Positions 1 to 51,652 are shown, numbered from the stretch's first letter. The stretch: 64,000 nt of DNA from Dictyostelium discoideum (GCA_000004695.1 CM000152.2:1664001-1728000), one strand, 5' to 3'. Numbers and translations are program-made. The notes: a model not told the origin generated them from the sequence alone.

Positions 1-699
1 CTGGATTATGATCTGATAATGAAGATGGAATTTGGTGGACTTGTGTATATATATTTTCAGGGTCTATTCTATTGTATTGAGTATATATTCTATCTAATCT
101 GTTGCCATGTGTATGAGTTGGAGTGTTTTTAAATTCACCTTGATCAATTAGATGGTGTTGGTATGTGTAGGATTGGATAATATCGTCTAATAGTGAATTG
201 TCGTTGTGGATACAGTTGAAATCTCCTGCGATAATAGATACATGTTGGGATTGGTTTGGTATTGGGTTTGTTGAGTGGTTGTGGATAAGTGTTTGTAGTG
301 AAGTTGCATATGAATTCTTTTTGATGGTATTATTAGATGCTGGTGCGTAAATTCCAAGAATACCAATTGGTAATTGATTTGGAAATATAACGTCTGCTAA
401 AATAGCTCTACCATCAATTGTTGATATGTGTTTGAGTTTGAGTGTGTTTGGGTTATGGTTAATGATTATTACACCATTTCCTCGTTTGGTGACAGAGATG
501 ATGTGATCGGGAAAATCATGTTTAAGTTGTAATGGTGATGAATTGAGTTCAGTGAGTATTGAGATTGTTGGACGAGGTGGAAGTTTTGATATAAGTAGTT
601 GTAGTGTGTCAACAGCTTTTTGGTAGGAATTGTGTTGATTGTTTGGGTTTTCAGTGAATCCTCTACAATTCCATGTTATAAAGTTGATTTTTGAGCTCA
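1..699 (-). CDS. Retroelement ORF2 N-terminus (AP-endonuclease domain), partial. It continues beyond the window edge.
   Basis: Translation MSSKINFITWNCRGF...VTKRGNGVIIINHN...GILGIYAPA...SIIAGDFNC matches the APE/EEP endonuclease motifs seen in copy-1 ORF2. Confidence 0.6.
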
Positions 700-843
700 T
701 ACCTTACTAGGTTTGGCAGCACCAGTATTGACTGGTTGTGCTGCTTCTTCTTGTATTTATTGTATTTGGAGTTGATGCACTTGGTTTGTTTGGTTGAGAT
801 TGTAGAGGTTTTTGTGGTACAATTGTTGGATCGGTTGGATTGC

Positions 844-1868
844 TCATTGATAATGAGTTTTCCCGTTATTATTATTTGAAGAATCACTTTTGTTTTGGGA
901 TTGATTGGTAATATCAAGTGATTCATTTTGTGTAGCTTTTGAACCACTATTTTGAGGTGGGTTATTATTGCGATTGGAATTTGCAATTTCGTTGATTGGT
1001 GGGGTGTTAATGTTGTTTTTTGGTGGTTGATTGTTTTTGTTCATGTTTGGGTTTGTGATAGCATTTTTTATAGTTGTTGCCATATCTGCATTTTTTGCAT
1101 GTTGAATTTTGTGTTTAGTGACACTACGTGTTGCAGCTTTGATATATCTTGTGATAACAGATGGTTGTTCGATCTTTTGATCAACAATGTTGTGTGTGTG
1201 ATCAATTAGATATGTTATAATGTAGCTTTTAAACGCAACAGCATATGAGTATGTGACAGTAAATGATTCAATTGATGTACAACTGGTGAATTTAGTGAGG
1301 TTGTTTGTAATTGCATCGTTTGCATGTTTGGGTGAGTACGTTTTAATGAATGTTTTAATGATTGCATAATCATTTGATGATATATCGAATCTATAGTTGA
1401 GTTTGTCGATATTTAGTGCAAGTTAGTTTTGAAGGTTATTATTGAAGTTAATTTATCAACGTTGCAATTTACGAAGGCAGTTGCACCAATTATTTTGAAT
1501 GCTGATGGCGACAGTATATCTTCGAAGAGTTTGTGAATGTTTTTGTGAATTTGTTGAATTCTTGTGTCATCTTTAGAGGTTAATTCTTCACGGATGTGTG
1601 GTTGATTAAAGTAACACTTAATGTTGATGGTGTTATTGTTTTTTTCTAAGAAAGAGAGTGGTCTTGTGATTGATGGAGGTGCAATGATATCTAATTGATT
1701 ATCAAGTCCTTTGTTTAGTGAGAGTTGGTTTGTTGGGGTTTGTTTTTTAGGTGTGTCGATTTTTGCACTTTTGTTTTTTGTTGTTGAGGTTGTGGAGGTA
1801 TTATTTGTATTGGTTGTGTTGTTATCTGTATGATTTAACTGTAATTCAGTTGAGTGATCATCAGCCAT
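844..1868 (-). pseudogene. Retroelement ORF1 (gag-like) of TRE copy 2, interrupted by a frameshift near 1412.
   Basis: The 151-aa ORF 1413..1868 continues in another frame (1400->844) as a long open frame (IDKLNYRFDISS...GKTHYQ*). Its position upstream of an ORF2 encoding APE endonuclease is typical of LINE-like elements. Confidence 0.45.
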
Positions 1869-1980
1869 TGTTGAAATGTATATAGGACGATAGCCCTTGC
1901 TTTATTGAGCAAAAAAGGGAAAAATTAAGAGGAATGAATGTGGCGGTGAAGATATAACAGTGATTTATTTATTATATGTA

Positions 1981-1984
1981 TAAA

Positions 1985-2014
<30 letters not shown>
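1981..2014 (-). repeat. Oligo(A) 3' tail of TRE copy 1 (A33 on the minus strand).
   Basis: A 33-nt T homopolymer on the plus strand lies at the 3' end of the minus-strand element, directly abutting the 5' UTR of copy 2. Confidence 0.55.
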
Positions 2015-2016
<2 letters not shown>

Positions 2017-2652
2017 TGGATTAACAAGATTGATATATGTCCATCTGTGTTAATACGAGTTTTTATATAATATTTATTTATAGGCTTATCATTTAAGCTG
2101 AAGGGTTATTTTAATCATATGAATTGATCAAAAGATATAATATTTGGGAGAGATGATTCTGGAATACAATAGTAATTAGCTGTTGTTTTTCTTAGCTTGA
2201 TCGTTGAGGTGAGAAGGATCTTAGGATCTTTGAAATTATTATGGTCTTTTGCTGATAAGTTTTTCAGATCTTTTGCTTTTTTGATGTATTCTAGAATGGC
2301 CAATTTGTGCCATTTCTTTAGAAGGAGCTGTATGATAGTGATTCATTTGTTAAAGGATCTTCACTGTATATTTGATTGCAAATCCAAATCCAAATGTTGT
2401 GGAGGATAAGGGCCATTAGGTTTCTATATGCGAATGATCTGGTTAGATCATAGTCTATTGCTTTATAGTTCCATTCAAAGTATTCTTTGTGGAATCTGTG
2501 GTTGGCGTAATCTGCATTCACTTCTTGATCTTTTTTGGCTGTCGGTGATAATTTTGGAGTTATTCTATTAATGAAATTGTTATTTTGCCTAATTCTTGTA
2601 TGGTGCCAGTTTTTACCTTTGCCTGTGGTAATATAGATGAAAATTTTTGAGT

Positions 2653-3243
2653 TTATTTATTTTTATGAAATGTTTTGTTTTCTTGCATGAGAAGAACAGG
2701 GTGACCGTATGGGTCTTTGCTCATATCTTCTTTGCAGAGTGGGCATTGTTTGTTGTGAAGGTAGTTTATTGGAAGGCATCTGGCATGGAATCTAAACATT
2801 GTGTCTCTTGTTTTAGGGTCTTTTATTTTCAGTATGTTGTTGAAGAGTTGATTATAGCTGTAGCCTCTTAAGTTTAGAGATGATTGGAATTCCGTTTTAG
2901 GGATGGTTGGATTTTGGTCTTGAATTGTGGTATACCATTCTGCCAGTGAAAGTGGTTGTCCATTTTCGTTTTTTATGGATGTGAGATTATTGTTGAAGAT
3001 TGCTTTTTTTATTCTTATTTTGTTCCATTCGTCTAAGTTTTCTTTTAGGTATCTGGATGTGAATTTGTTTTTTTGGATCTGATATTCCCAGCTTTTGTGA
3101 TGAGATGAGTTTGTTTGTTTGGTTTCTAGTGCTAGGATGAACTGGTTTATGATCCAAAGTTTCTGCGCCAGTTGTCTCAATTCTATATTCCAAATGTTCC
3201 AGCCCCCTACTTTTAGTGGGTATCTTGCTCTTTTGGTTCTCAT
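2653..3243 (-). CDS. Cys/His-rich C-terminal domain ORF of TRE copy 1 (196 aa). It is separated from ORF2 by a stop at 3368..3370 and ~125 bp.
   Basis: Ends ...CLPINYLHNKQCPLCKEDMSKDPYGHPVLLMQ, a CCHC-like zinc-knuckle typical of LINE ORF2 C-termini. It is out of frame with ORF2. Confidence 0.45.
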   Translation of the reverse strand: MRTKRARYPLKVGGWNIWNIELRQLAQKLWIINQFILALETKQTNSSHHKSWEYQIQKNKFTSRYLKENLDEWNKIRIKKAIFNNNLTSIKNENGQPLSLAEWYTTIQDQNPTIPKTEFQSSLNLRGYSYNQLFNNILKIKDPKTRDTMFRFHARCLPINYLHNKQCPLCKEDMSKDPYGHPVLLMQENKTFHKNK

Positions 3244-3370
3244 TAAATTAATAACTTGAAATCCACTAGCATTTTGTTGTGTTGGTGCGAATAAAAACCC
3301 ATTTGCAAATAATTAATTGATTTGGTTTAAATTCCTCTTCCTTAAAGTTCTTCTACATATGAATAGTGGG

Positions 3371-5722
3371 TTAATTTAGAGGAGTGCGAAGGCTTTTAGG
3401 GATGTTGGTTTTGGTTTTGATTGTTGAGTCAGTGGTTTTCCAAAGTACTAAGGATGATTTTATTGTGTTTAATATTTCTGGTATTTTTCCTGTTATCCCT
3501 TGCCCTGTGAAGAAGTATCCCAAGTATCTTTCTGGATTTGTAGATATTGGAATTCTTTGGTTGGTATTGTCTGGGTTGCCTATAAGAATTGATGAAGATT
3601 TGTCGATGTTTAGTTTTGAGGAAGTGGCTTTGCAAAATGAATTGAAGTGTTGTAGTACTAATTCAAGTTGTTGAGAGTCTGGGACCATTGAAGCCGAGTC
3701 GTCTGCAAAGCTTTGGAATTTCTCTCTGTGGTCGCTGTTGTTTAGAGGAAGGCCAGTAATTCGGTCATCTTGTAAAATTTTTCTAGCTAAAGCCTCTATT
3801 ACAAGGACGAACAGGGTGGGTGATAGTGGATCTCCTTGTTTAACTCCTCTTTTGATCTCAAAGGGTATAGTAGTTCTACCATTAATTTCAATTCTTGCTT
3901 CAGATTTGGTGAGTAGATTCATTATCAGGTTGATTATATTGGTTGGAATGTTGATGTGTTGTAGTGATCTGAGTATTGAACCGTGTGAAATCGAGTCAAA
4001 AGCTTTTTCGAAATCATATAGTGTAATTATTCCGTTAATTCTTTTATCATTACAATAGTTGATTAATTCGTTCATTGATATGATATTATCTATAATGAAT
4101 CTGCCTGGTACGAAACCTTTTTGATTGTGGTTGATCACTTTCGTTAGTATTGGGATTATTCTATTGTTTATTAGTTTTGAGTGGATTTTATATATACAGT
4201 TAGCCAGTGTAATTGGTCTTCTGTTTTTGATTAGTTCGGGGTCTCCCTTTTTAGGTATCGTGATAATGAGGCCTTCTTTGTAATTTTTGCTAATTAGATG
4301 AGGATTTCTTAGAGTGTCGTTGAATGCTGAGGCCAGTATTGGAGCTAGTTTTTCTTTGTGTGTTATGTAGAATAAGTTTGGAATTCCATCTGGGCCTGGA
4401 GATTTGTGTGGGTTCAATTGTTTTATTACTTCTAGGATCTCTTGTGTTGTGAATTCATTTTCAAGGTTGTCCCATGTTGAGTCCCTGGTCACTGTCCAAT
4501 TTTCCAACATTTCATAATGAGATGGTGGGTCATCTTCTTTGTAGTCATAAAGATTTGAGTAATATTTTACGTATTCTTCTTCGATCAATTCCTGTTTGTT
4601 GATTGTTCTACCTTGTGCATCTTTTACTGCGTTGATGGTGAAATCATTGTGTCTTTTCTTGATTCTCGCGGAGATGTACTTGAGTGAGGTTTCTTCGCAA
4701 TAGTTGTTCAATTCTTGTTTAAGTTGTTCTTCTCTTTTTTTAGATTCATTTATTGCTGAAAGGGTTGCGAAGGCTTGGTCTTTAAATTCTGTCTCTAGTA
4801 GGGAGATTAGATTTTTGATGTTTGCCTTATTGTTGTAGTCATTTTGTTTTTGAAATTCTGTGTATAGTTGTTTTATTTTGTTTAGTAAGCTGTTGAGTTG
4901 AGAGAAGGAAATAGAGTTATGGTTGGATGACAGCTCCCTTGAATAATCGTTAAGTAGGAAGTCTATTTTCTTAAGCATTATGCTTGAGAGGATTGAGGAT
5001 TTTTTTAATCTCCATCTGCGCTTGTTCATCTGTATGTTGGGTAGAGTGAAGGTGGTTGATAGGAAGTTGTGATCTGATAGAGGTATGTCATTAATTTTTG
5101 GGGGGATTAGGTTCCTTAAGTATAATTGGCTGTAGTTGATTATGCTATTGTTAAGGTATATTCTGTCTAGTCTCCTTTCCAAGATTCTTGTGAGGTTATT
5201 GTTTGTGTTGTGTATCGTTCTTGAGAAGGTGGGTCTTTTATTTAGTTGGTCCATATCCATTAGGTTATTTGAAATTCTGATGGCTTCGATTACTGTGGCC
5301 ATCTCATCTGGGGATTGTGTTGTCAAGTTGCCTTGGTCATCATTTGATGTGTGATTGTCATTGAAGTCTAAACAGTTGAAGTCGCCTGCTATGATGTCAA
5401 TGTTTTTATTAGGGTTAGACGTTAGGTTGTGGTATTGGTTGTTGAAGTGTTTGTTTAGTGTTGAAGCTAGTGTTTTTCTTTTATCAGGTTGGGCCGGGGC
5501 GTATATGGCCAAGATTCTCGTTGTGGTATCTTTTATTAGAATGTCTGATATTATTAGTCTACCTTCTATTATGAATATTGGTGAGAGTTTTATGTTTTGG
5601 TTGTTGTGGTTTAGTATTCCTATTCCGTTGCCTCTTTTGGTTGCGCTAATGATGGAGCCAGGGAATAGCTGGTGTGCTTGTGTTGCGTCGGCGTTGAGTT
5701 CATTGACTATGGTTAGTGCCAA
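3371..5722 (-). CDS. TRE copy 1 ORF2 (AP endonuclease plus reverse transcriptase). The true frame opens upstream to ~5870 and overlaps the ORF1 end. The TTG at 5722 is only the ORF-track start.
   Basis: APE motifs are KINQWNVRG (upstream extension), SATKRGNGIGI, AIYAPA and IIAGDFNC. RT motifs are PKKGDPELIKNRRPITL, GIITLYDFEKAFDSISH, QGDPLSP and FADDSA. Confidence 0.75.
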   Translation of the reverse strand: MALTIVNELNADATQAHQLFPGSIISATKRGNGIGILNHNNQNIKLSPIFIIEGRLIISDILIKDTTTRILAIYAPAQPDKRKTLASTLNKHFNNQYHNLTSNPNKNIDIIAGDFNCLDFNDNHTSNDDQGNLTTQSPDEMATVIEAIRISNNLMDMDQLNKRPTFSRTIHNTNNNLTRILERRLDRIYLNNSIINYSQLYLRNLIPPKINDIPLSDHNFLSTTFTLPNIQMNKRRWRLKKSSILSSIMLKKIDFLLNDYSRELSSNHNSISFSQLNSLLNKIKQLYTEFQKQNDYNNKANIKNLISLLETEFKDQAFATLSAINESKKREEQLKQELNNYCEETSLKYISARIKKRHNDFTINAVKDAQGRTINKQELIEEEYVKYYSNLYDYKEDDPPSHYEMLENWTVTRDSTWDNLENEFTTQEILEVIKQLNPHKSPGPDGIPNLFYITHKEKLAPILASAFNDTLRNPHLISKNYKEGLIITIPKKGDPELIKNRRPITLANCIYKIHSKLINNRIIPILTKVINHNQKGFVPGRFIIDNIISMNELINYCNDKRINGIITLYDFEKAFDSISHGSILRSLQHINIPTNIINLIMNLLTKSEARIEINGRTTIPFEIKRGVKQGDPLSPTLFVLVIEALARKILQDDRITGLPLNNSDHREKFQSFADDSASMVPDSQQLELVLQHFNSFCKATSSKLNIDKSSSILIGNPDNTNQRIPISTNPERYLGYFFTGQGITGKIPEILNTIKSSLVLWKTTDSTIKTKTNIPKSLRTPLN

Positions 5723-5826
5723 TGAGTTTGGGGGGGATTGGGATTTGATAAAGTCTGTTTTGTTTTTGAAGGAGGTGTCAGTGCCCCAACCTCTGACATT
5801 CCATTGGTTGATTTTGATTACTACTA

Positions 5827-7077
5827 TTATGAGATGATATCGATCTCCTCTTGGGAGTCGTATAGCTGCGGTTTGGATGGTGAAGGGTAGATACTCTCTA
5901 TGAAGCTCTCAATGATTCCTTTCCTTTCTTTTTTGACAGGTGTCTTAGGGGTGGATGGGATGTAAGGGTTGCTTCTGTTTATTGTTGGTGAGAGTTGGGT
6001 GACTTCATTGTTTGAGTGGATTTCCTCGTTCTTGCGTTTATGTGATGGAGGGATGTTTAGTGTCTTCTCTCTGTTTTCCGAGGATGAATGGATGTTAGTG
6101 CTTGTTTTGTTGGCATTGTCTTTTTGGATGGCGTTGGATGTTGTGGTAGTGGTTGTGGTGGGTTTGACAGATTGAGATTCTGCTGGGTTTTTGGGGGGAA
6201 GAGGTTGAGATGACTTTTTTGCTTGGGCTTTTTTCTCTTGTGTTGATTGTTTATCAGACTGATTGTTTGCTGAGTTGTTTGTTTGTTGTTGTGGTTTTGG
6301 TTGAGAGGATTTGATTGCTATCCTGTTTTGAGTGTTAGGAGGATCTGTCATCTCATCTTCTAATGGTTCCTCCGTGTTGGTTGTCTCTACTTTCTTGTTT
6401 TTCTTTTGTGAGGAGTAGGTTTTGGGGGCCGTTCTGATGGTAAAGTTTGCGATTTCTGTAATGTGTTGGCCATATTTCATTTGATCGCCTATTTTGCATT
6501 CTATTAGACCGAATACTATGAGGTGGTCGGTGGAGTATATAGTATTGTATATTGCATAGGGTATTTCTTCTGCAAAGGCAGTTTTGATGAGGGCGTCCAC
6601 TATTCCTGCCTTTTCTCTGGGAATTCTTACTCTTCCTGAGAGGACGCGGAAGTCTCTACTGGAGGAGATGAAGGTTCCCAATTTGCTTCTATCTCTAATG
6701 ATATTTAGGAGAGATTGTTCGTTTTTAATCATCAGGTGGATCATTTTTCTAGTTCCTTTGCCTATGTATATCTTGTCGATTGGGATATCGTAGTTTGAGA
6801 GTGTTTTTCTCATTTCTTCTAACCCCTTGAGATCCATTTTGGGGAATTCGAGTGTAATTGGGTAGAATCCGTTGTTCTTCTCGTAGGTTGAGAGCGCAGT
6901 CATGTTCAATATGGTCTCGCAGTATTTGGAGATGTCTTTGAGGCCTATTGATAGTTTGGGGTAAGTTTCCTTTATCTCTGCTGTTTTTGTGGAGAATTCC
7001 TTAATGAAGTTCTCCGATGCCTCGTCCATATGGGTGGAGGGGTTGGCCATTTTAGCCGCGTCTGCGTAGGAATTCAT
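5827..7077 (-). CDS. TRE copy 1 ORF1 (416 aa, nucleic-acid-binding gag-like protein).
   Basis: Long ORF with a basic, Ser/Thr/Gln-rich C-terminal half, placed immediately upstream of the RT-encoding ORF. Confidence 0.6.
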   Translation of the reverse strand: MNSYADAAKMANPSTHMDEASENFIKEFSTKTAEIKETYPKLSIGLKDISKYCETILNMTALSTYEKNNGFYPITLEFPKMDLKGLEEMRKTLSNYDIPIDKIYIGKGTRKMIHLMIKNEQSLLNIIRDRSKLGTFISSSRDFRVLSGRVRIPREKAGIVDALIKTAFAEEIPYAIYNTIYSTDHLIVFGLIECKIGDQMKYGQHITEIANFTIRTAPKTYSSQKKNKKVETTNTEEPLEDEMTDPPNTQNRIAIKSSQPKPQQQTNNSANNQSDKQSTQEKKAQAKKSSQPLPPKNPAESQSVKPTTTTTTTSNAIQKDNANKTSTNIHSSSENREKTLNIPPSHKRKNEEIHSNNEVTQLSPTINRSNPYIPSTPKTPVKKERKGIIESFIESIYPSPSKPQLYDSQEEIDIIS

Positions 7078-7337
7078 CTCGATGGGATTCCTTTGAATCG
7101 GCGATTTGGTAAGTTAGATCTGTAGATCGTGGTGGATTGGTGATTTTTTTCGAAAGATTGGTTAAAATTGACCGAGATTAAGGATAGAAAAGGATGAATT
7201 ACTTTTCACGTGTATCTTGTATCCTCTTGATAGCGGTACGGTTTTTTTTTTTTTTTTTTGTTAGTATCTATGTGTTTTTGTCCATCTGTTTGTTTTGGAG
7301 GTCTATAAAAAACAAAAATAACAAAAATTAAAATGAA

Positions 7338-7409
7338 AGTTCCGAACCAGGATTGAACTGGCGACCTAACGATTTGCAGTCGCTTGCTCTTCCACTGAGC
7401 TATCGAAAC
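7338..7409 (-). tRNA. tRNA-Cys (anticodon GCA), 72 nt.
   Basis: Minus-strand sequence GTTTCGATAGCTCAGTGGAAGAGCAAGCGACTGCAAATCGTTAGGTCGCCAGTTCAATCCTGGTTCGGAACT folds as a cloverleaf. The acceptor pairs GTTTCGA/TCGGAAC, the D-stem GCTC/GAGC, and the anticodon loop is CTGCAAA. There is an A-box TAGCTCAGTGG, a B-box GGTTCAATCC variant (AGTTCAATCC), and a downstream T-run terminator. Confidence 0.9.
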
Positions 7410-7587
7410 TTGTTGAAATTTTTGGATTAATAGCCAATTTTGGCCGTTTTTTATCGCAGGATCGAATCCATGCATGGTCAATTTTAATTCCTCTTTTATT
7501 TAAACAAACTAAACTGTAGACAGATGGAAGTTAAATTAATTTTTAATTTATTTATACTTTTATTTTTTTTTAATTTAAAAAGTAATT

Positions 7588-8244: not shown

Positions 8245-8279
<35 letters not shown>

Positions 8280-8696
8280 ATAATAATAATAATAAAATAA
8301 TAATAAACAAAAAAACAGAAATAAAAAAATAAATAAAAAAAAAAAAAAAAAAAAACAATTGTATATTTAAGATTATTAAGGATATTACTAAAGTTACTCA
8401 CATTTTTAAGTTTTAAAGAGAAAGAAGAAGATAAAAAAAAAAAATGATATCACGATTGTCGTTTTAAAATGTTAGGATTTTTTTAATTTTATTTAATTTT
8501 TTTTTTTTTTTTTTTTTTTAAAATAATATTTTTAAAATATCATTTTTTTTTTTTTTTTTTTTCCTTTCCTTTTTCTTTGTGTGTCAAAATATATAAATTA
8601 AACTCTTTTTTAAAGAGAATTATAATATAATAATAATAATAATAATAATACCAATACCAATACCAATACTAATATAATAATAAACATAGTAATAAA

Positions 8697-9557
8697 ATGA
8701 CAGATAGACAACCATTAATTTCAAAAAATGATGATATTATTAATAATCTCACAAGATTCTATACTGAATTAACCGAATTTGAAAAGATTATAAAGGATGT
8801 TGGTACAGGTCGTGACACAACTACATTAAGAAGTACACTTCATAAAAAAAAGGTTAATTTAGCAGATGATTTAAAAGTTATTGCACAACAAATTAAACAA
8901 TTACCATCATCAAAATTACCAAAATTCCAACAAGAAAAAATCGTTAAACAATTTAAAGAAGCTTCTTCAAAATTTGAAGAATTATTATCAACCTCAAATA
9001 AAAAAGAATCATCACATGAACCAATTGTACCAAGTCAACAACAACAACAACAACAAAATAATGGTAATAGTAATAATAATGGATATAATACAAGAGGTGG
9101 ATATAATCAACAGCAACAACAACAACAACAACAATATAATGATTACACTAATAATAATAATAATAATAATAATAATGAAGTTGAACAATATAATAGATTA
9201 GAACAAGCATTAAAATCAGGTATTGAGCAAGATGAAGAAGAATATACAAATCGTATTCTTGATGAAAGAAATGCAAATGCAAGACAAATTGCAAGAGATG
9301 TTGCAATGTTAAAAGAAGCAATGGATGATATTGCTGTTATGGTTGGTGAACAAGGTGAAATGTTAGAAAAAGTTGATGACAATGTTACAAATGCTGATGT
9401 TGCTGTCGAAGATGCTGTTGTAGAATTAGAAAAAGCATACGTTTATAAATCATCATACAGAAAGAAAATGATCATTTTCGTTATTTGTTTATTAGTTACT
9501 CTTGTCGCCGTTGGTATATTTTTAGCAATTTACTATGGTGTAATAAAGAAAAAATAA
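8697..9557 (+). CDS. Syntaxin (Qa t-SNARE), syntaxin-7-like, 286 aa, with a Q/N-rich insert.
   Basis: A C-terminal SNARE heptad region (ARDVAMLKEAMDDIAVMVGEQGEMLEKVDDNV, Gln at the zero layer) is followed by a single TM helix (IIFVICLLVTLVAVGIFLAIYYGV). The N-terminal part is Habc-like. Confidence 0.75.
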   Translation: MTDRQPLISKNDDIINNLTRFYTELTEFEKIIKDVGTGRDTTTLRSTLHKKKVNLADDLKVIAQQIKQLPSSKLPKFQQEKIVKQFKEASSKFEELLSTSNKKESSHEPIVPSQQQQQQQNNGNSNNNGYNTRGGYNQQQQQQQQQYNDYTNNNNNNNNNEVEQYNRLEQALKSGIEQDEEEYTNRILDERNANARQIARDVAMLKEAMDDIAVMVGEQGEMLEKVDDNVTNADVAVEDAVVELEKAYVYKSSYRKKMIIFVICLLVTLVAVGIFLAIYYGVIKKK

Positions 9558-9608
9558 AATAAAATTAAATAAAATTAAATAAATAAATAAATGATTTTTT
9601 ATTTTATT

Positions 9609-9640
<32 letters not shown>

Positions 9641-9720
9641 GAAGTTTAAACTTCTTCTGACTTCCCCCTTTTTATTTTTTTTCTTTTTTTTTTTTTTTTT
9701 TTTTTTTGTAGTCTTTATTT

Positions 9721-10171
9721 TTAAATAATTATAATAAAAATATTAAAAATGAATATTATATATAAAATATTTTTTAAATACCAAAATGTTGAAACTGATT
9801 TTGAAATTTCATCAGAATTATTAATATTACTATTGTTATTATTATTATTATTATTATTATTAAATTGATTTGAAGGCATTTGTAAAATTCTTTCTTCATA
9901 TAACGGGTCAATTATACCATCGAGTGTGAATGGTTGTGCTCTAAATCCTCTTGAACTTTCATTTAAATAACCAATTGAATTTTTACAAATTAATGTTGGA
10001 TTTTCACTCGAGAATCCATTTTTAGTAATTTCAAATTTTTTAGGATCTTTATTTATAATATCACATGTTGAAATTTTATATTTTAAATCTGAACATTCCA
10101 TTGTAATTCCATCTACACAATATCCATTTTTAATTCCAAAACTAAAAATTGGTTTATAATCACATGTTGAT
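9721..10171 (-). CDS. Hypothetical secreted Cys-containing protein, exon 2 of 2.
   Basis: In frame with exon 1 across intron 10172..10309 (GTAAGT...TTAG), which contains a 73-nt dA:dT tract. There is a poly-N tract near the C-terminus. Confidence 0.45.

Positions 10172-10175: not shown

Positions 10176-10248
<73 letters not shown>
10176..10248. repeat. 73-nt homopolymeric dA:dT tract (intronic).
   Basis: Continuous T run on the plus strand inside intron 10172..10309 of a minus-strand gene. Similar tracts lie at 20681..20722, 46755..46799 and 50085..50140. Confidence 0.9.
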
Positions 10249-40065: not shown

Positions 40066-42006
40066 ATTAGTTTTTTATGTGACTTTAATTTATTATTTGT
40101 AATATTTGAATTAATGAATATAAGTAAATTATTTAAAGAAAAGACATCAACATCACAGTCAAAAGTTAAATTTAAAAAATCAAAAGAGATTGATTTCTTT
40201 TTAGAGTATTTTACAAAGATTATAAAAGTTTTATGTAAAGAGGTAGTTTCATCATCATCATCATCAAATAATAATAATCCAGATGAAATTAATAATACAT
40301 TGGGATTAATTGATACTTATCTTAGTACTTTCTATGGATTTTTAAGTGAAGATAAATTAGATCAAGTTATAACACCTCCAGCTATTGAATGTAAAGGTTC
40401 TCATATGAATTCAATTATTGCAATAATGAAAAAATTCGATTCAATCATACCTTCTGAAGTCATTGCTGATACAAATGATATTTCAATTAATATCTCTTAT
40501 TCAATTTTAGATTTAGATCCACCTTTAGATGGTTTCTTAGATCAAAATCCAATAACTTCTTCTTCATTGTCAACAATACAACAACAACAACAACAACAAC
40601 AACTTGGAAATAGTAGTAACAATAATAATTATAACAATAATAATAATAATGATACTAGTGGTAATGGTTCAGTAATATTTAAATATTCACCAAAGAGTAC
40701 TGAATATATGGGAATTGTTCATGATATTATCACAAGAATACCAATTGCACCAAGAATTGATAAACCATACAAAAAATGTATTAGATGTCATAGAATTACT
40801 GTGATGTTACGTACCTCTATGTTTTGGTCTGATCGTTGGTCAATGGCTTGTCCAATTTGTGGTGGAAAATGGAAATCTTATCAATCTTCCTCTTCTTCAT
40901 ATTCTTCTTCCTCCAATACTCATGATATTGGTGCTCCTATTCAACAACCTCAATCACAACCGCAATTGAATCCACCACAATCCCAAACTCAAAATCAAGC
41001 ACAAACACAATCCCAAACTCAAAACCAAAACCAACCACAAACTCAATCACAAACACAAACTCAACCACAGACACAGACACAACCCCAAACACAAACTCAA
41101 CCACAGATCCAATCGCAACAAACTCCACAATCACAAATACAAACTCAAACTCAACCACAAAACCAAACTCAATCACAAAATCAACCACAGATCCAATCGC
41201 AACAAACTCCACAATCACAAACACAAACCCAACAATCACAAAACCAACAAACCCAAAATCAAAATCAAAATCAAAACCAAAATCAAAACCAAAACCAAAA
41301 CCAACAAAACCAAAACCAAAACCAACAAAACCAAAACCAACAAAACCAAAATCAACTAAATCAAAACCAACAAAATCAAAACCAACAAAATCAAAACCAA
41401 CAAAATCAAAACCAACAAAATCAAAATCAAAACCAAAACCAAAACCAAAACCAAAACCAAAACCAAAACCAAAACCAATATCAAAATCAGAATCAAAACC
41501 AAAATCAAAATCAAAATCAAAATCAAAATCAAAATCAAAATCAAAATCAAAATCAAAATCAAAATCAAAATCAAAATCAAAATCAAAATCAAAACCAAAA
41601 TCAACAAAGCCAACAACTTCAACAGCAACTTTTACAACAACAACTACAGCAGCAACAACTTCAACAGCAACTATTACAACAGCAACAACAACAACAACTA
41701 CAACAACAACAACTACAACAACAACAAATACTACTTCAACAACAGCAACAACAACAAAATCAACAAACACCTCAACAAAACCAACAAACACCTCAACAAC
41801 ATCCACCGACACCACAATCACATATTAATCAACAGAACTTGAACCACACCCCACAACAACATCAAGAACCTGTTCATACTCCACAACAACATCCACCAAC
41901 ACCACANNNNNNNNNNNNNNNNNNNNNNNNNNNNNNNNNNNNNNNNNNNNNNNNNNNNNNNNNNNNNNNNNNNNNNNNNNNNNNNNNNNNNNNNNNNNNN
42001 NNNNNN

Positions 42007-50880: not shown

Positions 50881-51652
50881 ATGGACGAATTGGATGAATT
50901 ATTGTCAAATCCAAACGTAAATGTAGATGATGAAAAGTACAAACAAATTCACAATCTTTTTAGCTCACCCCAACCNNNNNNNNNNNNNNNNNNNNNNNNN
51001 NNNNNNNNNNNNNNNNNNNNNNNNNNNNNNNNNNNNNNNNNNNNNNNNNNNNNNNNNNNNNNNNNNNNNNNNNNNTACACAACAGCCTCAAGCTCAACAG
51101 CAACAACATCAACATCAACAGCAACAACAGCAACAACCACAAGCTCAACAACAACAAGCCCAATCTCAACAACCACAACAACCTCAACAAGCAACACCAA
51201 AACCTCAACCTCAACGTACAGTTATTACTTTAACTCAACAACAACAACAACATTATTTAACATTGACAAATCAACAAGCACAACAACAATATTTACATCA
51301 AATAAGAGCACAACAACAACAGGCCGCTCTACTATTACAACAACAACGTTTACAACAACAACAACAACAACAACAACAGCAAGTACAACAACAGGGTCAA
51401 CCAAACCCACTAATGGGTGGTGCAGCAAAAACTATATATATGTCAACTCAACAAGGTGTTCCACAACCACAACAAAATACTATACAAAAGATGCCTCCAA
51501 ATGTAGGAACAGCCCAAATGAAACCAATGCCACAAAATCAACAAATGTACTCACAACAAACAGGTGTCCAACAACAACAACAACAACAACAACCACAAGT
51601 TATGAATATTGCAAAACCACAACCAACTGTACAACCCCATCCTCAAGCATTA

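Follow-up and report, generated by a model that had tools for sequence, protein, structure and literature searches.

A stack of TRE-type retrotransposons behind a tRNA-Cys gene of Dictyostelium discoideum, the proximal element of which merges two tandem copies into a hybrid

Region 1..7409 of a 64-kb window of Dictyostelium discoideum DNA (GCA_000004695.1, CM000152.2:1664001-1728000; the window is the whole of this stretch) contains the only tRNA gene that ARAGORN and Rfam detect in the window, a tRNA-Cys(GCA) gene, and downstream of it two non-long terminal repeat (non-LTR) retrotransposons, of which the tRNA-proximal one is here called element A and the distal one element B. We read this region, with high confidence, as TRE3 elements piled up head to tail behind a tRNA-Cys(GCA) gene, with TRE3-A proximal and TRE3-B distal, of which the window shows two copies merged into a hybrid. 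The one TRE3-A of the window combines parts of two tandem copies (copy 1 and copy 2), merged by collapse or by recombination, and is not a single insertion, which means that the stack records three integrations. The position, orientation, and tandem stacking of the elements are published TRE3 behavior and already known; the only point added here is that the seemingly full-length TRE3-A merges two real copies into one hybrid and probably contains sequence errors. TRE3-A was formerly named Tdd-3 and TRE3-B was formerly named RED; TRE5-A is also called DRE. An earlier reading made from the DNA alone, referred to below as the sequence-only reading, had proposed two TRE-type non-LTR retrotransposons standing head to tail behind tRNA-Cys(GCA), and this is borne out by the tRNA gene predictions of ARAGORN and Rfam, by the open reading frames (ORFs) and their domains, and by independent copies of both elements, which belong to two TRE families, one TRE3-A-like and the other TRE3-B.

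On the minus strand the order starting from tRNA-Cys is spacer, CTAAC, A18, element A, A27, and element B, which leaves the window at position 1. The tRNA gene and both elements all lie on the minus strand and are thus co-oriented. For comparison we used the same locus in another assembly, GCA_054883475.1, chromosome CM142509.1 (L003 and L004), which was located via the host gene beside the stack, together with independent copies of TRE3-A (L001) and TRE3-B (L002). The features of the region are as follows.

7338..7409, minus strand: tRNA-Cys(GCA) gene (Rfam RF00005, 61.4 bits; ARAGORN 7337..7410).
7349..7359, minus strand: internal B box AGTTCAATCCT in the T-arm of tRNA-Cys, read from the sequence.
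7265..7337, minus strand: native spacer of 73 nt, AT-rich, with RNA polymerase III (Pol III) terminator T-runs.
7260..7264, minus strand: CTAAC, the left of the two target-site duplication copies made by the proximal TRE3-A insertion; its right counterpart is found in L003/L004 and is absent from the window.
7242..7259, minus strand: A18 run, made up of the A part of the target-site duplication and the 5' oligo(A) preceding CCGTACC.
2012..7241, minus strand: body of element A (almost certainly TRE3-A), 5230 bp, composed of parts of two tandem copies and delimited by its end-to-end match to L001 and by its length.
5827..7077, minus strand: ORF1 of element A, 416 amino acids, intact, without a Pfam domain.
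2115..5908, minus strand: ORF2 of element A with endonuclease, reverse transcriptase, and CX2CX10HX4C knuckle, split into at least 4 frames in the window.
1985..2011, minus strand: poly(A) tail of element A, a pure A27 run, as long as that of copy 2 in L004.
1..1984, minus strand: the 5' 1984 bp of the TRE3-B element, starting with TTTATACATATAAT directly after A27, the remainder lying off the window.
844..1868, minus strand: TRE3-B ORF1, frameshifted near 1420, in the pieces 1413..1868 and 844..1422.
1..700, minus strand: start of TRE3-B ORF2, with its own ATG at 698..700 (MSSKINFITWNCRGF...), whose endonuclease leaves the window.

The 5' end of the stack lies 78-96 bp past the 3' end of tRNA-Cys, where the sequence-only reading had given ~90-170 bp; the lower of these figures agrees with our measurement and the upper does not. 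Counted from the internal B box, which had been put forward as the landmark from which the integration point should be measured, the distance is 90-108 bp. The proximal element does face the tRNA gene with its 5' end and has the same orientation, as had been stated, but its earlier description as a full-length element of ~5.3 kb at 1981..7246 gives way to a hybrid body at 2012..7241 plus A27. Similarly, the tail said to be A33 at 1981..2014 does abut the second element but is A27 at 1985..2011. The elements have a G+C content of 30-41% with a strong strand skew, as against 15-25% in the flank. Upstream of tRNA-Cys there is no element, and the end of a host GFA-domain gene is reached after ~180 bp.

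Element A runs from CCGTACCGCT (CCGTACC, 7241) to CCAATATT (2012). Its ORF2 is in the -1 frame with respect to ORF1 and stays open from 5908 onward, sharing ~80 nt with the end of ORF1 (5827..5908; ORF1 stop at 5827..5829). The first in-frame ATG of ORF2 is only at 5302, past the N-terminus of the endonuclease, and none precedes the endonuclease motif INQWNVRG; translation of TRE3-A ORF2 via a -1 frameshift from ORF1 has been reported (PMC5911963). The Pfam reverse transcriptase profile RVT_1 is matched with E=4e-34, while the endonuclease match is weak and below the Pfam cut-off, yet spans profile positions 3-225. The zinc knuckle is broken in the window by a window-specific 1-nt insertion at 2701. 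ORF2 is 98% identical to D. discoideum proteins, and its 90% identity cluster was the largest seen here, with 79 members. That the element is not a chance arrangement follows from its alignment, end to end and at 98.3% identity, with the independent copy beside a tRNA-Thr gene (L001 5830..11084). The L001 copy measures 5228 bp, the window body 5230 bp, and copy 1, its 5' A-run left out, 5223 bp; the published consensus lengths are 5229 bp for TRE3-A, 5279 bp for TRE3-B, and 4734 bp for TRE3-C, with no full-length copy of TRE3-D (PMC5006619 Table 1). Judging by this length, the -1-frame overlap of ORF2, its abundance, and elimination, element A is almost certainly TRE3-A, as it is distinct from the labelled TRE3-B and neither the 4734-bp TRE3-C nor TRE3-D, which lacks a full-length copy, fits. 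No match in the protein searches bore a TRE name, and the literature on the DDB_G identifiers of its relatives, on "TRE3-A ORF2", and on "Tdd-3" gave nothing usable, with no record named TRE3-A or Tdd-3 being retrieved. A search for exact products found no record of the proteins encoded by the TRE ORFs of the window, nor of a putative TRE3-C protein.

Element B can be identified as TRE3-B, because its family contains DDB_G0291686, which is labelled "TRE3-B ORF2" in a dictyBase-derived table (PMC12405889 Table 2), and because its endonuclease is identical at 229/230 positions to that of GenBank "pol" AAD43057.1, the 3' two-thirds of TRE3-B ORF2 being only ~94% identical to the reference pol. 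DDB_G0291686 is 97% identical to the intact 1275-amino-acid ORF2 of the same family. The part of element B within the window is 100% identical to L004 8536..10519, ORF1 frameshift included, so that this frameshift is real, and it is 94% identical to the independent L002 copy; these two alignments show that element B, too, is not due to chance. The frameshifted distal ORF1 and the ORF2 endonuclease running off the window had both been noticed before. In L004 the full TRE3-B copy of the locus measures 5217 bp plus A22. Its 5' end is short of that of the family by ~31 nt, which in the L002 copy read AAAAAAAACGAAACAAAGAAATAAACGAGAA, and these could have been lost either by 5' truncation at its own insertion or on the arrival of copy 2.

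The two families share the same architecture of endonuclease, reverse transcriptase, and knuckle, with RVT_1 matched at E=4e-34 to 4e-31, CX2CX10HX4C present in both, Exo_endo_phos matched at E=1e-12 in TRE3-B, and poly(A) tails on both. Their ORF2 products are ~44% identical in the reverse transcriptase and zinc-knuckle part and 32-35% identical in the endonuclease, close to the ~40% first estimated. A reading that derives both ORF sets from a single rearranged element, or from a non-TRE family with the tRNA gene nearby by coincidence, can be dismissed almost entirely. Each element aligns over its whole length, i.e., with its own 5' untranslated region (UTR), 3' end, and poly(A), with independent copies that have target-site duplications of their own; one family carries the TRE3-B label and the other has an independent copy beside tRNA-Thr. 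Nothing was found in favor of such a reading, which these whole-length copies and the TRE3-B label rule out. Nor did we find a lack of distance conservation, which the sequence-only reading had named, along with a non-TRE family and a single rearranged element, as an outcome that would speak against it.

The second assembly allowed the TRE3-A of the window to be resolved into its parts. Its flanks differ from those of the window by one mismatch and by homopolymer lengths in ~12 kb, and its order from the tRNA side is tRNA-Cys, spacer, CTAAC, A18, TRE3-A copy 1, A20 tail, CTAAC, A13, TRE3-A copy 2, A27 tail, TRE3-B, A22 tail, and a flank starting with CCAATTTCG. The junction between the two TRE3-A copies reads ...CCAATATT(A)20 CTAAC (A)13 CCGTACCGCG... 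in both L003 and L004. Copy 1 (L003 3330..8570) is bracketed by CTAAC(A)n, a target-site duplication which takes in part of the 5' A-run of copy 2 and which therefore places the insertion of copy 1 after that of copy 2 and at the same spot. The two copies form a tandem of 98.4% identity. Copy 1 has both frames fully open (428 and 1261 codons, with an ORF1 of 416 amino acids) and is, judged from its reading frames, a candidate active TRE3-A. In copy 2 both ORF1 and ORF2 are damaged, and with L001 as outgroup it has 71 private changes as against 19 in copy 1. The open ORFs of copy 1 are not visible in the window, owing to the hybrid and its frameshifts. Outside the elements, the two assemblies differ only at long homopolymers of the host flank, 8246..8355 (A-rich, ~110) and 10176..10223 (T-run).

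Comparison of the window with both copies at the sites that tell them apart gave the following structure.

5223..7241, minus strand: copy-1 alleles at 61/61 diagnostic sites (sites 7232 to 5223).
5144..5222, minus strand: interval within which copy 1 gives way to copy 2, 79 bp over which the two copies do not differ.
2012..5143, minus strand: copy-2 alleles at 30/30 diagnostic sites (sites 5143 to 2067), including a 1-bp deletion at 2326.
3276..3503 (228 bp), minus strand: 28 window-unique differences including 8 inserted bases, absent from copy 1, copy 2, and L001.

There is a single switch and there are no exceptional sites. In agreement with this, the window's TRE3-A matches copy 1 at its 5' junction, and it matches copy 2 at its 3' junction and in the length of its A27 tail. 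A total of 37 differences in the window were found in no other copy, and the cluster at 3276..3503 causes most of the ORF2 frameshifts; the differences of this cluster are probably sequence errors.

Collapse of copies 1 and 2 during assembly appears the more likely origin of the hybrid, since the source assembly is scaffolded and has gaps (the window contains two runs of exactly 100 N, 41907..42006 and 50976..51075), since the differences unique to the window resemble low-quality sequence and stand in a background that is otherwise near-isogenic, and since the AX4 gene model of the adjoining TRE3-B, DDB_G0279127, is annotated as "partial" and has a diverged N-terminus. This model is 100% identical to L004 over 776 amino acids, but over its first ~210 residues the identity to the TRE3-B copy of L004 is no more than 86%, a pattern which suggests that the repeat was mis-assembled at this locus. 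Alternatively, the hybrid could be biologically real, an unequal homologous crossover or intrachromosomal deletion between copies 1 and 2 having removed one 5.25-kb unit. A single switch within a 79-bp interval of identity, with 61 and 30 concordant sites on either side, is just what one crossover would leave, and tandem 5-kb repeats of 98.4% identity should be good substrates for recombination. A crossover does not account, however, for 37 unique differences next to flanks in which ~12 kb contain a single mismatch besides a few differences in homopolymers, nor for the concentration of 28 of them, with 8 inserted bases, in 228 bp, which resembles poor sequence rather than biology; the N gaps and the 86% N-terminus of the "partial" DDB_G0279127 likewise hint at mis-assembly. 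We therefore consider a real crossover possible, but the less probable of the two origins, and continue with assembly collapse as the preferred one.

The position of the stack agrees with what has been published on TRE3. Integration of TRE3 elements takes place 40-150 bp downstream of a tRNA gene and in the same orientation (PMC5911963), the measured distances being 14-228 bp for TRE3-A and 34-188 bp for TRE3-B, of which 39/43 copies are near tRNA genes (PMC5006619 Table 1). Sequential targeting of one tRNA gene, giving rise to tandems, has also been described (PMC5006619 Additional file 1, note to Table S2). Of the features of such an integration the locus shows two-ORF non-LTR elements with poly(A), the domain order of ORF2, the distance, and co-orientation, and the earlier proposal of repeated position-specific integration at the same Pol III gene is supported, the distances being within the published TRE3 ranges and the tandems being on record. 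The independent TRE3-A copy L001 lies 68 bp downstream of tRNA-Thr(AGT), is co-oriented with it, follows an external B box GGTTCGAAACC at a distance of 33 bp, and has a 16-bp target-site duplication ATTAAGAAATCCATGT. The independent TRE3-B copy L002 (6680..13075, GCA_054883475.1 CM142511.1) has a target-site duplication of 10-11 bp, ATCATCATTTC. It appears to be inserted at or in a polyketide-synthase-like gene, with ketoacyl-synthase and acyltransferase genes immediately upstream, and carries between endonuclease and reverse transcriptase a non-coding insert of ~1.1 kb with an A-run of its own (~8814..9955), which is absent from the L004 copy.

Both TRE3 families start with oligo(A) directly after the target-site duplication. 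In TRE3-A this is A9 (L001 5830..5838) or A13 (copy 2, L004 ~3273..3285) before CCGTACC, and in TRE3-B it is A8 before CGAAAC (L002 6680..6687). This 5' oligo(A) may be templated 5' sequence or an untemplated addition at the 5' junction.

A-runs co-oriented with the elements are involved in every junction of the stack, and L1-type target-primed reverse transcription fits this. The endonuclease would nick a T-run of the bottom strand, the poly(A) of the element would prime there, and the new copy would come to lie 5' of the remaining A's. The empty site would have been ...GATACTAAC(A)nCCAATTTCG..., ~80-95 bp behind the tRNA gene, and would have been struck three times. In the proposed sequence of events, TRE3-B would have integrated first behind tRNA-Cys, followed by TRE3-A copy 2 between tRNA-Cys and TRE3-B and then by the intact TRE3-A copy 1 at the same position, with duplication of CTAAC and part of the 5' A-run of copy 2; lastly, in the window, copies 1 and 2 would have been merged into the single-switch hybrid, more likely by assembly collapse than by unequal crossover. 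The duplications made by TRE3-B and copy 2 would consist of A's only and hence be unreadable, and for this reason the placing of TRE3-B first rests on the need of TRE3 for a nearby tRNA gene. According to the literature, the tRNA gene would be recognized via TFIIIC and the B box; dependence on the B box, the external B box, and the Pol III complex has been examined only for TRE5-A (PMC5006619).

The opposite order, in which TRE3-A was the first to arrive beside the tRNA gene and TRE3-B later inserted into its poly(A) tail independently of any tRNA gene, appears improbable. L1-type endonucleases do favor T-runs/A-runs, and the arrangement at hand, with the 5' end of TRE3-B abutting A27 and its 3' tail followed by unrelated flank, would hide a duplication consisting of A's only; moreover, the TRE3-B copy of L002 is not near any tRNA gene. 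On the other hand, TRE3-B would then have landed >5 kb away from the tRNA gene, when 39/43 TRE3-B copies are found 34-188 bp from one, and the sole readable duplication in the stack, the CTAAC(A)n of copy 1, shows the newest element to be the one nearest the tRNA gene. In the L1 mechanism as established, and by inference from it, an element inserting at an A-run ends up 5' of that run. Target-primed insertion of this kind fits TRE3-A landing 5' of a TRE3-B that was already present. We thus retain the order TRE3-B, copy 2, copy 1. The earlier view that the younger copy lies between the tRNA gene and the older one is confirmed by CTAAC(A)n in the second assembly for copy 1 with respect to copy 2, and appears probable for TRE3-A with respect to TRE3-B.

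Several observations weigh against the reading given above or limit it. In the window itself, the hybrid TRE3-A keeps only the left copy of its duplication and the junctions of TRE3-B are pure A-runs; a comparison of the upstream flank with the flank past the TRE3-B tail, looking for a target-site duplication around the whole stack, found only A-runs to be shared. The target-site duplications expected to flank each copy are thus present for copy 1, in L003/L004, while none is readable for copy 2 or TRE3-B, with their pure A-run junctions, and it is for this reason that the order of these two depends on the target specificity of TRE3 and not on sequence. No external B box (GGTTCGAANCC, <=1 mismatch) was found between tRNA-Cys and the stack. 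In the case of the TRE3-B copy of L002, the 6.7 kb upstream contain no tRNA gene, so that targeting is not absolute, an exception which agrees with the published 39/43 TRE3-B copies near tRNA genes. The label TRE3-A derives from elimination, length, and frameshift features, not from identity to any sequence named TRE3-A. Finally, one clean switch fits real recombination as well as it fits assembly collapse.

Two further observations concern the surroundings of tRNA-Cys. A B-box-like sequence, GGATCGAATCC, is present on the plus strand at 7459..7469, ~50 bp upstream of tRNA-Cys and on the opposite strand, with 1 mismatch to GGTTCGAANCC. It sits inside a stretch resembling a degenerate tRNA T-arm (GCAGG ATCGAAT CCATGC) and could be a tRNA-gene remnant or a chance match, given that two or more such matches occurred in 17% of shuffles. 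The 11-mer ACAGATGGACA occurs exactly twice in the 64 kb (expected 0.02), on the minus strand at 7279..7289 and 2038..2048; the spacer copy is 19 nt before the A-run and the copy in the TRE3-A 3' UTR is 26 nt before the tail. This shared sequence followed by an A-run suggested a third, 5'-truncated TRE3 remnant between tRNA-Cys and element A, an idea that was not supported, as local alignment to the 3' ends of TRE3-A and TRE3-B scored no better than shuffles and no other locus matched. The pair could be a trace of an older, nearly fully truncated TRE3 3' end, for which the extended alignment was not significant.

When compared with known systems, element A resembles TRE3-A in its length, its two ORFs, the -1-frame overlap of ORF2, the order of endonuclease, reverse transcriptase, and zinc knuckle, its poly(A), its co-oriented position 78-96 bp downstream of a tRNA gene, and its high copy number; it differs in being, in the window, a hybrid of two tandem copies with window-specific frameshifts. 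Element B is like TRE3-B in its endonuclease (229/230 to AAD43057.1), its membership in the DDB_G0291686 family, the ATG of its own for ORF2, and its length of 5217 bp plus tail compared with the 5279-bp consensus. It is unlike TRE3-B in lacking the first ~31 nt, in its frameshifted ORF1, and in its present distance of >5 kb from the tRNA gene, which is due to the TRE3-A copies lying between. TRE5-A is also an L1-like element, with ORF1 and an endonuclease-reverse transcriptase-zinc-finger ORF2, and also targets tRNA genes. TRE5 integrates ~50 bp upstream of them and in the opposite orientation (PMC5911963), whereas the elements of the stack are downstream and co-oriented, so that the TRE5 pattern is not seen here. 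Skipper-2, which uses the same downstream window as TRE3 (PMC5006619), and the yeast elements Ty3 and Ty1 likewise have tRNA genes as safe havens; these are LTR/integrase elements, unlike those of the stack, which have neither LTRs, integrase, nor RNase H and end in poly(A).

The biological weight of the locus is small: it is a clean example of the textbook stacking of TRE3-A and TRE3-B ~100 bp behind tRNA genes in D. discoideum. Caution is called for with the window's assembly, since TRE copy counts, calls of intact or dead elements, and age estimates taken from it would be wrong at this locus. If the hybrid did arise by a recent, real crossover in one laboratory lineage, tRNA-anchored TRE stacks would be recombinationally unstable and would not be the same in near-isogenic strains, and such events could eliminate a copy that is intact and potentially active.

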